A stretch of 64,000 nt of DNA. Origin: Chiloscyllium plagiosum. Taxonomy: Eukaryota. The translations under genes were made by a program, and so were the position numbers. This document shows positions 31,990 through 36,419 of this stretch, one piece after another. Numbering within the stretch: the stretch's first letter is position 1; each line of letters starts with the position of its first letter. The stretch lies in contig NC_057727.1 of assembly GCF_004010195.1 (NCBI RefSeq), positions 10,978,132 through 11,042,131 of the forward strand, written 5' to 3'. Under the pieces are notes generated by a model that ran no database searches, was not told the origin of the DNA, and saw only the letters and a program-made list of their open reading frames with translations.

Positions 31990-32605
31990 TGAGATGTTAA
32001 AGGGTTAATTTGTTCTGCTGCCCTTCAAGAAATTGGATGTCCCAGGGAGTAGGGTAGTATGTCTCTGTCTTGCAGGTAGAATGTAAAAAAAATTACATTG
32101 CCATCTCCTGCTATTCAGAATCAATAAGAACATTGCAGTTAAAATTCTGACCACACCCTGAAGTTAAAATAAATGATTTACATCAGATCTTGTTATTAAG
32201 GAAAGATCTACATCACATTGTTTCCGAAATAATCATAGAGTCATAGAGGTCTACAGCATGGAAACAGACCCTTCGGTCTAACCCACCTATGTTGACCCGA
32301 TATCCCAACCCAATCTAGTCCCACCTGCCAAATCACTACATTGTGTCTTAAGTGGCATGTGACTATGGGGGAGTGGCTGGGGGTTATCTTGTGAGCATTA
32401 CTGACTGTGATGTAAAATCTTATATAAAGGAAAAATTGCTCTGTTTGTTCAGAGAGATCTCTTGACACAGCTTCGCAAGCATTGCTAAGAGTGTTAAGTG
32501 ACACTCCAAACCTTGAATTTGCTTAATGAATTTTGGCTGTTCACAGAAGTTGGCGTATTGCAGTTGCATCAAGTGTCTAAGAATCTCAAGAAAAAGAACC
32601 TAACA
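31990..32605 (+). repeat. 5' LTR (contains a CR1-tail insertion ~32235-32330)
   Basis: TGAGATGTTAAA...AAGAACCTAACA; colinear with 35887-36419. Confidence 0.9.
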
Positions 32606-32610
32606 TTTAT

Positions 32611-32631
32611 TGGCAGTAGTGGGATTCCAAC
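32611..32631 (+). promoter_or_regulatory. Primer-binding site, tRNA-Leu-like
   Basis: TGGCAGTAGTGGGATTCCAAC resembles the complement of the vertebrate tRNA-Leu 3' end (GTTCGAATCCCACCACTGCCA). Confidence 0.7.
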
Positions 32632-33404
32632 AGCTTCTAGATGGACTAAGTGATTACCTGCATGACAGTAACATGAGACAGATGGGCCCACTTGGTAAGA
32701 TTACTTTGATCTCTCTCATTAACTAATCACTCAATCAACCCCTCGTCCCCTAGGAGTCTGCAGTGATGGAATCTCTGAGATAACATGCACTTGTAAGCCA
32801 ACGAGTTTGCTTTCAGAACCCTAGAATTTGGAGGTTTGAGTCCTCAGAACCATAAGTTCACTGGAAGGGAGGTTAGAGTCCCTCCCTGAATTCACAGGTT
32901 TGAGTTCTCGGAACCACAAGTTACTAGAAAGGGAAGTTAGAATTCGGAGGTTAGGGTCCTCTAATAGTGGGGTTTGAGGCATTGGAGCATAGTACATAAG
33001 ATAAAGAATAACTAATGTGTCTGTCACAATCACCCTGCCTTAGACCAGTTGTTAAGAGGGGAAAATCCCCCACATGAAGGTCAGGAACCTGAACTGGGTG
33101 TGAAGATTGAAGACACTGGACTAGATTATAGATAAGTTAGGAAGTTGAGACTTTAAAAATGGTACAGATGTTGGATAACTCGGGTGTCAGAACCCCTTTG
33201 CTTCGGTTATGCTGGGATGACCCCAAAATGAGGAATGGTTCAGGTGCCTGTCAGGATGTTTTTATATTTTAAAAAAATTGGGAAATGAAATTTGGCTGAA
33301 AGGAGGAACTTGGGACATAGATAAATGTTTAAAAGCAGAAGAGGCAATTTGGAAACGTAATATGGGGACTAAATGGAAAACTTTCATATCCACATGAGGA
33401 AAAA

Positions 33405-33515
33405 AAGCAGGAATTTTCAGCATTGCTTCACCTGAGGCCCACTGAAGATGTTACCTAGTGGGGTAACACAACGTCTGGAAATGAACCTTCCAGCTCAGTG
33501 AGCAAACCTACATCC
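33405..33515 (+). mobile_element. Penelope pLTR fragment (second family) inside the LTR element
   Basis: CCA-CTGAAGA-T-GTTACC-loop-GGTAAC-(ACAAC)-GTC-TGG; same family at 47030-47820. Confidence 0.7.
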
Positions 33516-35230
33516 ATGGTGAAAGACTGCTGAGGAAATAAACAAATCTAAACAGGCCAGCTGGGAGAATTATGCGTGTCAAAGAGGGATTAGAAGTGTG
33601 ATAATGAGGGAAAACCGAAGTCTTGGGTCTGTGTAAGGATTATGATATGAGTAAAGGAAAACAGGAAAAATTGAGAAAGCAAAGACAAAATAAGGAATCA
33701 GAGTCAAAACACCAAGCTGGACTATCAAGTAGGAATAAAATGGAGGTACCTCCTGACATGTTTGGTCTGCCAATAATGTTTCAGGGACACCTATTCAGAA
33801 CTCACTGTATGTCCAAAATCTCCTCAAAGTCATCCTCCTTCCCAAGCAATTGACCATAATCAAATGTGCTGCTCTCTGTGAACTGGCAGGCACTAAATAG
33901 ATCACTGACCTCAAAAACAACAAGCATACCAGACATTGTCACTGTGCAGCATTTACAGGGGGATGTCCCTGACCCAGAAAAACAAATATGGAAGACGCAT
34001 GGGTGTTCGCACTCTGTGTCAAAAGTATGTATACCTAATGCTTGTTACCAACGCTAATAATACCTGGAATATTTTATTCCGTTTTTACTGTCATTTTACG
34101 TTTCAGTTCATAGATGTCAATTTAAATTGTAGCTATTTAGAAAATATTCATACGTTGCTTTTTGTTAAGTGACTACTCATTTCCATTTTCTACAAGTTTA
34201 CACAAAACTATTAGCAATTAGTACTTCCTAACAAAAAAATTGAAGTACTTGTTTGTGTATTGATGTTATATTCTATGTAAAACATATTATTTCTATCAAT
34301 TATTTACAACATTTTAGAATTAGAGATCTTGGCGTGTGAGATGACACAAGAACTTAATTAGTATACTGTAATTAGCTTACTGTAATTTCAGAAGGGACAA
34401 GTGCAATGGCTATCAGTTCCTTTTGAATGATTCTCAGCTGGCAGGACTGTTTAAAGATTGACTAGATATAGCAGCAAAAAAAAAATTAAACTTCAAGGAA
34501 AAATCTACAAGTGAATACTGCTGGTAAAGCCTTGCTCAGGTGATCAGGAAAGTAGAAGACTTGAAATTAAATTTTATTACAACTAAGCATAAAGTCAAAA
34601 GTAACAGAAGTTTGAAAATGTAGTTAGAAATCAGGAACTGTGAAATACTTTTCCTGACAGCTTTCACATTAGGCAAAAATGCGTACTGCAGATGCTGGAG
34701 ATTAATGTCAAGAGTAAGGTGCTGGAAAAGCACAATAGGTCAGGCAGCATCCGAGGAGCAGGAAAGTCGATGTTTCAGGCAAAAGCCTTTCATCAGAAAT
34801 TACATTCACATTAGCCAAGTATTAATTTGTTAAAGGAAAATACTTTTTGAACAACATGAATGGGGTCCCAGAGAGATTGATTTTAGGACCATTGATTGTT
34901 GTTTATAAATGACTGAATTGTTCAGGCAGTACAGTTTAAAAGTTTATGGATTGTATAATACTTGATAATGTCATAAATAGTGAACAGAGTAACAGACTTC
35001 AAGAATTCAAAGAATGTTGAAATCGGAAGACACAATTTAGTGTAGTTAAATATGTGACTCTTCATACTGATACCCACCTTGGCAAGGAAGGAATGAGACA
35101 GGAAATGCAAAGATACTTTCAGCAACTAATATCATCTCTAGAGTTTCTCCATTCACAGGTAAAGCACGCCCTCGGACCACTGCCCACCTCTCCACAACCT
35201 GGTCCAATGGATTCAATCAGCTCCCTTGTC

Positions 35231-35540
35231 ATGAGCATGAAAAGTGAAGAAGCTAACTATGGTGAAGAGGTAAAGGTCCATACGCTTTTTGTCAGTGGCC
35301 GCCCTATGGATATTAAGCTACGTGAGCTTTACTTTCTCTTTCGATCATTTAAGGGATATGAAGGTTCACTGATCAAGCTAACACCAAAGCAGCCAGTTGG
35401 CTTTGTTATATGTAACAGCAGAGCTGGAGCAGAGGCAGCAAAGAATGCTACGTTCACCTGCAGCACTACATGCTCAGGTGCGCTGGTATTCTCCATCTGA
35501 AACATCTCCGCAAGAATTGACGTGTCGTCAGTTTTGTTAA
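35231..35540 (+). pseudogene. RBPMS2: Processed, internally deleted RBPMS2 retrocopy inside the LTR element
   Basis: Intronless [61 protein letters not shown] fused out of frame to C-terminus [29 protein letters not shown]-like sequence and AATAAA (35833) follow. Confidence 0.88.
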
Positions 35541-35886
35541 GTATTTAATTGTCCTCATCCAAGAATTCAGATTTCTCCATGGAATGGTGTGCAAGTACAG
35601 ACTGGATTTTGTTTTCAGGTTGGAGTTTAATGAAGGAGATTTTGGATAACTGGCTCGTTTTCACTCAACTTAGAGGGGGTGGACTGGTCACTAAGGACTG
35701 TGGATTTAAGAACTTTACTGGTGAACTCTTTTATTTCCACCTGGGAGGATCCTATCTACTGCATGGACTAGTAATTCTTGATGTTATAATAATTGTATGT
35801 TGTGTGTCAATACTGGCTGTCAGATTCTTATGAATAAACTGGTAGTGCCTTTTAATTGGTTATCATGGAATGATAAAAGGAGGGAA

Positions 35887-36419
35887 TGAGATGTTAAACG
35901 GTTAATTTGTTCTGCTGACCTTCAAGAAATTGGATGTCCTGGGGGTGGGGTTGGTATGTTTCTCGGTCTTGCAAGTAGAATGTAAAAAAATTTGCATTGC
36001 CATCTCCTGCTATTCAGAGTAAATTTACTTCGTCATTTCCTGCTATTCAGAATCAATAAGAACATTACAGTTAAAATTCTGACCACACCTTGCAGTTAAA
36101 AAAAGGATTCACACCAGATCTTGTCATTAAGGAATGATCTACATCAGTTTCTCGAAATAATCAAATCACTACATTGGGTCTTGAGTAGCATGTGACTATG
36201 GGGGAGTGGCTGGGGGGTTGTCTTGTGGGCATTGCTGACCGTGATGTAAAATCTTGTATAAAAGGAAGAACTGGTCCCTTTGTTCAGAAAGATCTCTTGA
36301 CACGGCTTCGCAAGTGATCCTCCAAAGCTTGTACTTGCTCAATAAGTTTTGGATATTCATAGAAATTGGCATATTACTGCTGCATCGTGTGTAAAAGTCT
36401 CAAGAAAAAGAACCTAACA
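35887..36419 (+). repeat. 3' LTR preceded by polypurine tract
   Basis: AAAAGGAGGGAA|TGAGATGTTAAA...AACCTAACA. Confidence 0.9.

Follow-up and report, generated by a model that had tools for sequence, protein, structure and literature searches.

A 64,000-nucleotide stretch of Chiloscyllium plagiosum DNA (the window) contains a two-LTR element at 31990-36419 with TG..CA ends, a primer binding site (PBS) and a polypurine tract (PPT), and between its LTRs lies a spliced copy of RBPMS2 coding sequence (Table 1). The RefSeq annotation enters this RBPMS2-bearing copy as a gene. The element interrupts a LINE, which we take to be CR1-like, with an endonuclease match upstream of the element (Pfam PF14529, E 3e-4), and another copy of this LINE in the same window (20180-20440, reverse strand) carries a single AGAG at the matching place, a paralogous empty site. 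Both LTRs open with TGAGATGT and close with ACCTAACA and differ at 52 of 494 aligned sites (K2P 0.115). The 17-nt PBS pattern equalled the 3' end of tRNA-Leu(CAG) in one of the 20 scanned loci (L015, a non-shark tRNA), and the PBS presumably fits vertebrate tRNA-Leu ends; no tRNA gene was found in the 64-kb window.

Table 1. Features of the RBPMS2-bearing element, in positions of the window
Feature	Positions	Strand	Remarks
Left target-site duplication (TSD), AGAG	31986..31989	+	inside LINE ORF2
5' LTR	31990..32605	+	TG..CA; later ~95-nt repeat insertion at 32236-32328
tRNA-Leu-type PBS	32608..32627	+	17-nt pattern against tRNA 3' ends
Leader exon MRQMGPL and donor G/GTAAG after 32694	32673..32696	+	inferred from the protein of RefSeq model XP_043563611.1
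Probable gag remnant	33130..33760	+	all frames broken; high-copy insertion 33404-33516
RNase H C-terminal remnant, gammaretroviral-like	33781..33870	+	PDB matches
AT-rich ~1-kb segment, 32% GC	34026..35058		missing from some family members
Short high-copy repeat, SINE-like	34673..34804		flanked by 10-bp duplication TTCACATTAG, 34663-34672 and 34805-34814
Integrase-like remnant	35059..35206	+	HxxxHxG start joined to C-terminal helix and QPG; acceptor AGs 35140-35141, 35157-35158
Spliced RBPMS2 coding cargo	35231..35540	+	ATG, exons 1-4, internal deletion, rest of exon 6, exon 7, stop; frame broken 35458-35460
RBPMS2 3' UTR and/or env transmembrane remnant	35541..35874	+	94 stop-free codons 35549-35830, hydrophobic end; AATAAA at 35833
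PPT AAAAGGAGGGAA	35875..35886	+	sequence
3' LTR	35887..36419	+	33-nt internal duplication
Right TSD, AGAG	36420..36423	+	LINE resumes beyond (RITRERVGPLK)

The viral remnants upstream of the cargo were heavily eroded. A gag remnant had been claimed in the sequence-only reading, and 33130-33760 does presumably resemble gag in its motifs; no search confirmed this protein identity, with no relevant Pfam family in the three forward frames of 33100-34060, while family contigs covered 33130-33395. All six PDB matches of the RNase H remnant were RNase H chains, weak at E 0.27-0.53, with XMRV named in one; the other chains are, we assume, of murine leukaemia virus origin. The word-indexed search, the viral contigs and Pfam gave no match to it. 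This RNase H trace, like the leader splice and the likely env-position geometry described below, lay beyond the earlier reading. No reverse transcriptase (RT) remnant was recognised in this copy by the Pfam family scan.

The AT-rich segment is bypassed by a joint 34025>35059, with 67 other letters between, in contigs of all three DNA runs, and the SINE-like repeat is skipped by a joint 34662>34805. Pfam matches to the segment were none better than E 0.03 in the scanned frames, including the reverse frames of 34026-35060. The stretch behind it, 35059-35206, we take to resemble integrase in its motifs, and its 3' part is also present in RefSeq paralogues. Integrase tests of 35021-35206 returned only three unrelated matches by HMMER against 1.84 billion proteins, twelve weak PDB matches that were mostly kinases, Atlas scores below 0.9, and no locus in the viral contigs; the best matches across searches were kinases and repeat proteins. 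The three forward frames of 34805-35210 held no relevant Pfam family and the Rfam scan gave one chance match only. A 4-bp TSD is the rule for ERV1 (class I) elements, and given the 4-bp TSD here together with the gamma-like RNase H match, the latter only at E 0.27-0.53, the best reading of these traces is an ERV1-like (gamma/epsilon-type) retrovirus of carpet sharks.

The cargo was identified more firmly. Among 525 protein matches the best was C. plagiosum RBPMS2 (E 1e-23), and in a vertebrate RBPMS2 locus that retains its introns (L005) the parts of the cargo align to four separate exons. Three exon junctions are spliced in the cargo, where the exons abut at 35353/4, 35392/3 and 35477/8. The exon maps are those of L005 and L006, two of eight metagenome-scan loci, among which L008 was a chance bacterial match and none was a family member. 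An internal deletion begins some 6 nt short of the exon 4 end, reaches into exon 6 and removes the end of the RRM; the match of the cargo RRM to 2m9k stops at residue 62 of 93. Residues I91-P95, lost in this way, are part of the RBPMS2 dimer interface, and the last strand is lost too (PMC4150794). Both ends of the deletion lie inside exons and exon skipping is therefore ruled out as its cause. The intronless RBPMS2 cDNA within an LTR element and its internal deletion, both proposed from the sequence alone, are thus borne out, as is the RBPMS2 content of the cargo, but its proposed start at 35160 is not, and the cargo probably begins near 35207-35231.

The interval between the stop of the cargo and the PPT measures only some 330 nt. 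This leaves no room for an env and may point to its replacement. The stop-free run and the hydrophobicity of this interval occurred together in 0 of 5000 Markov controls (the run in 55, the hydrophobicity in 13) in a post-hoc test, while the three forward frames of 35541-35886 gave no Pfam env match and Atlas no match. Part of the apparent UTR may possibly be a remnant of the env membrane anchor, and the earlier placement of the cargo end some 40 nt before the PPT could not be established. From the weak RNase H match, the integrase-like motifs and the post-hoc membrane-anchor test, the cargo likely sits at the env position.

Neither hallmark of a LINE-type processed pseudogene, a poly(A) tail and flanking TSDs, was found at the cargo: 35200-35890 contains no A-run of at least 5, and no word longer than 6 nt is common to the 5' junction zone and its 3' counterpart. 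The same absence had been reported in the sequence-only reading, and it is a weakened negative because the element is old. Had a LINE made the retrocopy and placed it in an existing provirus, with later deletions of its tail and TSD before it multiplied together with the element, this would agree with the wealth of LINE remnants in the window, with the AATAAA at 35833, and with the age of the family and the many deletions at its contig joints, through which such hallmarks could be gone. We nevertheless regard this course as unlikely, as the cargo is sense to the LTRs with its start codon kept, the A-run and duplicated word are missing, and the lack of space for env suggests replacement, as in LTR-mediated retrocopies (PMC5131818).

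The captured RBPMS2 was amplified with the element and is found with the same junctions at other loci. Two further RefSeq models on other chromosomes have the same upstream peptide, internal deletion and P>S change, and the three annotated copies lie on chromosomes of 72, 157 and 138 Mb while the parental RBPMS2, the gene of XP_043536550.1, is on a 27 Mb chromosome. The copies cluster with the C. plagiosum RBPMS2 gene (support 93/92, 72 columns). Contigs 81-88% identical span the upstream junction (X1 record 5, X18 records 21 and 22) or the deletion (X10 record 15) in three species, and one extends 30 nt into the LTR (X18 record 23). The deletion preceded the spread of the family because it is common to all three annotated copies, and the three "RBPMS2-like genes" in RefSeq for C. 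plagiosum seem to belong to the family. Between 50 and 95 contigs per run covered the cargo, with a differing letter at nine of the ten listed sites in 35125-35684, although summed contig depth does not equal copy number. An assembly artefact or a segmental duplication of one retrocopy has next to no probability; no observation spoke for it, and it is refuted by the locus-specific TSD and by paralogues 12-19% diverged on different chromosomes; in addition, a contig of organism A showed 0 differences over 33988-34301. Capture followed by amplification as a family, as had been suggested, therefore holds, and the contrary outcome named beforehand (other members lacking RBPMS2, with a TSD or poly(A) around the insert) was not found. 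Fixation in the genome makes this a germline capture, without pointing to a particular germ cell or tissue.

Family transcripts, at low depth, were sense and ran into the 3' LTR. The predicted proteins of two RefSeq models, at two loci, imply an env-type splice that joins the leader to a point shortly before the cargo, while the joint 32694>35142 was absent among the 15 joints listed of 783. The element probably kept a leader-to-3' splice, and any protein from transcribed family members would be a broken RRM. A donor/acceptor pair upstream of a sense cargo that begins at the 5' end of its gene could also be expected from read-through transduction, in which a provirus upstream of RBPMS2 gave a fused spliced transcript that recombined at its 3' side with helper RNA, a route established for acutely transforming retroviruses (PMC4299795). 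However, family-shared sequence runs directly up to a 5' junction placed just upstream of the exon-1 ATG and not at an acceptor of an internal RBPMS2 exon, and no intron sequence was recognised, which makes this origin quite improbable.

Of 58 RRM residues, 7-9 are replaced in each copy; neutral decay at half the LTR divergence would give about 7, a rough estimate made at the protein level only. The replacements strike conserved RRM positions and the decay of the cargo protein fits neutrality; neither the intact domain nor the purifying selection of a functional retrogene was found, the RRM being truncated and its replacements near neutral. The copy is decayed, with a broken frame and diverged LTRs, as the sequence-only reading had it. 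The LTR divergence corresponds to about 260 My at 2.2e-10 per year, the rate assumed by Han 2015 (PMC4422223), or about 57 My at an assumed 1e-9; the available part of PMC10587355 gives a per-generation rate only. The older age seems too great for a cargo that clusters with the bamboo-shark gene and no absolute date was adopted.

Selection has been considered as the reason why cargo-bearing elements would have become the commonest form, with the cargo RNA or truncated protein aiding the element by germ-plasm targeting or interference with host RBPMS2. Depth over the cargo was several times that over the LTR, gag and RNase H parts of this copy in all three DNA runs, an env-type splice is implied at two loci, the annotated frame of one paralogue stays open as far as the native C-terminus, and rbpms2a (zebrafish) and hermes (Xenopus) RNAs localise to the Balbiani body (PMC6049948). 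Presence of the cargo in several diverged LTR subfamilies would also produce the excess depth, the protein needs its RNA-binding domain to be intact in order to localise (PMC6049948), the cargo shows no enrichment of CAC motifs (7 sense vs 12 antisense), and replacements near the neutral count have struck conserved RRM positions. An aided spread of this kind is accordingly rated as highly improbable.

We consider it probable that template switching brought the RBPMS2 segment into an ERV1-like element, at the position of env, and that the element then spread passively and non-autonomously. An ERV1-like carpet-shark retrovirus would have packaged a spliced RBPMS2 mRNA, and its reverse transcriptase would have jumped onto this mRNA near the coding start and back to viral RNA upstream of the PPT, so that the cDNA apparently displaced most of env. 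A further deletion, its two ends within exons, cost the cargo the last part of its RRM ahead of the family's spread. The element retained its LTRs, PBS and PPT, and probably also the leader-to-3' splice, and many copies of this non-autonomous form were made, presumably in trans. The copy described here integrated into a LINE, producing a 4-bp duplication; small repeats were added to it later, and it has decayed about neutrally.

Host-gene capture by endogenous retroviruses (ERVs) is known in other vertebrates, and the RBPMS2 family is a clear new example. CrocERV31 carries nectin3 in the place of env and CrocERV29 carries KIT-ligand (Chong et al. 2014, PMC4299795). As far as the available part of that paper describes them, both are, like the present element, vertebrate ERVs that took up a spliced host mRNA, were amplified after capture and are common to related species. 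The captured mRNA lies at or near the position of env, as it likely does in the present element, whereas their cargoes are nearly full-length and intact, evolve under purifying selection and number 6-9 copies, with nectin3 in an ERV4 element. The RBPMS2 element differs in a cargo deleted before the spread, approximately neutral decay, an RNA-binding germ-plasm gene as its source, an ERV1-like backbone and an apparently far greater number.

Animal cases of LTR-mediated retroposition, HERV-K/FAM8A1 among them (Tan et al. 2016, PMC5131818), likewise have an mRNA segment between two LTRs that lacks a poly(A) and its own TSD, is sense-transcribed and undergoes further non-autonomous rounds; in those cases the segment replaces part of the internal ORFs, as the RBPMS2 cargo may also do. 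Junction microsimilarity has been shown for those cases, which unlike the RBPMS2 family are young and low-copy, and cartilaginous fishes are not among the species named in the available text (PMC5131818). The element also resembles acutely transforming retroviruses (v-src, v-kit) in a host-derived ORF, a defective genome needing a helper and possibly an env-type spliced RNA (PMC4299795), but it is an old, fixed endogenous element of which no exogenous form is known, and it gives no sign of a functional or selected product. Class-I-like insertions in a chondrichthyan genome are represented by the epsilon-related CmiERV II/III (Han 2015, PMC4422223), for which the available part of the paper reports no captured host gene, and the RBPMS2 element has no RT for placement in a tree. 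Among the papers listed in the literature search none joined RBPMS2, shark and retrovirus, none treated shark gene capture by its title, and those on RBPMS and Chiloscyllium had unrelated titles; none was returned on bamboo shark LTR retrocopies. Subscription papers, Repbase/Dfam or supplements may list the family.

The element is a well-preserved fossil, in a cartilaginous fish, of the process of retroviral gene capture that also made the viral oncogenes, and the RBPMS2 family seems to have multiplied far more than its crocodilian counterparts. Numerous dispersed and partly transcribed copies of a gene required for oogenesis confuse both annotation and the mapping of RBPMS2 reads. It is a speculative idea, and a very unlikely one, that the RNA segment was kept for an advantage in the female germ line, either by steering to the Balbiani body or germ plasm or by dampening host RBPMS2 through small RNAs or a truncated env-splice product, with the cargo then spreading over several LTR backbones; if true, a germ-plasm address taken from the host would serve a retrovirus as a cis-acting element. 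The large set of copies makes it testable whether captured cargo is a neutral passenger or an aid to germ-line spread, and whether or not small RNAs derived from the element act on the parental RBPMS2.

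The two-LTR element at 31990-36419 is real, and 494 aligned sites of its two LTRs included 52 differences, 35 of them transitions (K2P 0.115), besides a small number of indels. AGAG was present at both element ends, and a second copy of the host LINE at 20180-20440 (-) carried a single AGAG at the corresponding place; AGAG is therefore a true 4-bp target-site duplication (TSD) made at integration. A SINE-like insertion lies a few bases further on in that LINE copy. The host LINE, which we take to be CR1-like, had a Pfam endonuclease match upstream of the element and its ORF2 peptide on either flank (AIYLYIKSK on the left, RITRERVGPLK on the right). 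A pattern from the sequence directly after the 5' LTR matched the 3' end of a tRNA-Leu (not from shark) in one of 20 loci scanned, and a purine tract directly preceded the 3' LTR. The leader contained a 64-nt tandem duplication (32819-32941), and 32785-32939 was skipped in some family contigs. Elsewhere in the window, a 26-nt inverted repeat (36651-36676 and 37518-37543, 96% complementary, 841 nt apart) lay within LINE remnants, and 50200-61000 (-) held at least two decayed LINEs, presumably Tx1-like, with Pfam matches to ZCCHC3-type RNA-binding domains, zinc knuckle, endonuclease and RT. Long ORFs on opposite strands at 42046-43445, which to our eye resemble Penelope-type RT/GIY-YIG proteins, had no Pfam match at E 0.01.

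Coordinates and chromosomal locations of the LTRs, the RBPMS2-carrying copies and the parent gene
Feature	Window position	Location	Remark
5' LTR	31990-32605		begins TGAGATGT, ends ACCTAACA
3' LTR	35887-36419		begins TGAGATGT, ends ACCTAACA
XP_043563611.1	32673-32694 and 35142-35500	72-Mb chromosome	this proviral copy ('RBPMS2a-like')
XP_043546817.1		157-Mb chromosome	RBPMS2-carrying copy
XP_043545055.1		138-Mb chromosome	RBPMS2-carrying copy
Parent RBPMS2 gene		27-Mb chromosome	

An ORF at 35204-35497 matched RBPMS2 proteins, best that of C. plagiosum (E 1e-23), and the C. plagiosum RefSeq protein XP_043563611.1 was identical to the window's ORF across 120 residues, an identity that establishes the species. 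Four separate exons of an intron-bearing vertebrate RBPMS2 locus (L005) were matched with their junctions joined at 35353/4, 35392/3 and 35477/8; the cargo is therefore a spliced cDNA, in agreement with the sequence-only reading. That reading had also described a cargo lacking poly(A) and TSD, and no A-run of at least 5 was found around the cargo in this copy, nor any word longer than 6 nt common to its 5' junction zone and 3' zone. A LINE retrocopy that landed in a resident provirus is an unlikely source. The cargo has an internal deletion that removed the I91-P95 loop, described as part of the RBPMS2 dimer interface (PMC4150794), and the last RRM strand. Exon skipping was ruled out as its source, as the deletion starts within exon 4, about 6 nt from its end, and finishes inside exon 6. 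The reading frame of this copy was also broken at 35458-35460.

All three annotated copies have in common the internal deletion, a P>S change and a peptide that precedes the RBPMS2 start; the deletion came before the spread. They grouped with the C. plagiosum gene (support 93/92) in a tree built from 16 trimmed proteins, while the clade of the three alone had support of only 82/79. XP_043546817.1 and XP_043545055.1 appear to be sisters of XP_043563611.1, and all three are probably misannotated transposon-borne pseudogenes. The parent protein (P0001) has DCRVG at positions that are SRA in two of the three copies and in the other sharks compared, and the capture is therefore older than these two changes.

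The element interior was present in public runs of three organisms, four of the 24 listed runs being compared with 32606-36800 at 80% likeness. One contig of organism A matched 33988-34301 with 0 differences (depth 12), and 50-95 contigs per DNA run carried another letter at nine of ten listed sites in 35125-35684. Among the 24 pieces listed of about 177,800, contigs 81-88% identical bridged the upstream cargo junction (run X1 record 5, X18 records 21 and 22) and the cargo deletion (X10 record 15); X18 record 23 covered the cargo tail and the adjoining 30 nt of LTR, one nt short of the bridging rule. An assembly artefact is scarcely credible. These diverged contigs, and the features shared by copies on different chromosomes, uphold the earlier proposal that the capture was amplified as a family. 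Relative depth (summed depth over a chosen single-contig depth, which is not a copy number) reached about 120-600 in the cargo and 30-180 in the LTR, with 30-50 for RNase H and 6-65 for leader and gag; this suggests a large family, probably of more than a hundred members. If the X18 record 17 contig (96% identical) is an orthologue, the insertion was already present before organisms A and C diverged.

For the viral interior, 33781-33870 weakly matched the RNase H C-terminus, all six of its PDB matches being retroviral RNase H chains, one named XMRV (E 0.27-0.53). The element likely belongs to ERV1; no RT remnant was left in this copy. The region 35059-35206 resembles the beginning of an integrase joined directly to the enzyme's C-terminal helix. 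Database searches confirmed neither this integrase identity nor any gag identity in the element, including the 'gag remnant' proposed earlier. A joint of 34025>35059, with 67 other letters between, occurred in some contigs of all three DNA runs, and the AT-rich kilobase 34026-35058 is therefore missing from some family members; within that kilobase, a short repeat is flanked by a 10-bp duplication of its own. At 34846-35125, X21 RNA reads were found only opposite to the cargo and LTR read orientation (depth 3.4-3.8 vs 0). The segment was as high in copy number as the cargo, 34006-34565 being low-copy, and may represent another captured piece.

After the RBPMS2 stop, 35549-35830 held 94 stop-free codons ending in a hydrophobic stretch, a combination seen in 0 of 5000 controls (singly 55 and 13; post hoc test). 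The segment, previously read as a UTR-like tail, is somewhat more probably an env membrane-anchor remnant, although U/G-rich UTRs also translate as hydrophobic and a UTR origin remains the alternative. No env match was found for it in Pfam or Atlas.

The RefSeq model of this copy starts MRQMGPL (encoded at 32673-32693, between the PBS and G|GTAAG) and resumes at 35142 following AG, and the same MGP-x-EFLHSQ join is found in the 157-Mb copy. Retroviral env subgenomic mRNAs have just such a leader-to-3' join. An env-type splice is thus predicted from the protein models; the leader>35142 joint was not among the 15 joints listed of 783. In organism A, single-cell poly(A) reads from 2% of the run (sense being the orientation assumed for such libraries) covered 35126-36245 at depth 1-6 in the presumed sense orientation and fell beyond 36245, as expected if 3' ends sit in the LTR. 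The parent gene cannot account for those reads that fall in the LTR or upstream of the cargo. All ten reads at 35684 differed from this copy, and expression was therefore demonstrated for the family and not this locus. RNA-seq, suggested as a check in the sequence-only reading, gave low-level reads in the presumed sense orientation over cargo and LTR at family level.

The most probable reading follows the co-packaging and template-switch model of LTR-mediated retrocopies (PMC5131818): RBPMS2 mRNA would have been packaged with viral RNA and a double template switch would have placed the cDNA at the env position. Family members may then have been mobilised in trans, with an env-type splice running from the leader to just before the cargo. 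Read-through transduction is likewise unlikely. Each copy had 7-9 replacements in 58 RRM residues invariant in three other sharks compared, against a neutral expectation of about 7 at half the LTR divergence, and the cargo protein therefore looks like a neutral passenger. The RNAs of rbpms2a and hermes localise to the Balbiani body (PMC6049948), and depth over the cargo exceeds that over other element parts, as might suit a selected accessory; the apparently neutral decay, the truncated RRM and the lack of CAC motif enrichment in the cargo leave that improbable, as is the related proposal that the captured RNA segment acts as a germ-plasm address for element RNA.

Zebrafish LTR pairs enclosing cellular genes have been reported (PMC8672886), and no paper on this shark family was found in the literature searched (repeat databases, subscription papers and supplements outside scope). 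In CrocERV31-nectin3 a host mRNA replaces env (PMC4299795). The shark family resembles that case, and LTR-mediated retrocopies generally, in its mode of working, and differs from CrocERV31-nectin3 in its broken cargo, apparent neutrality and larger copy number.
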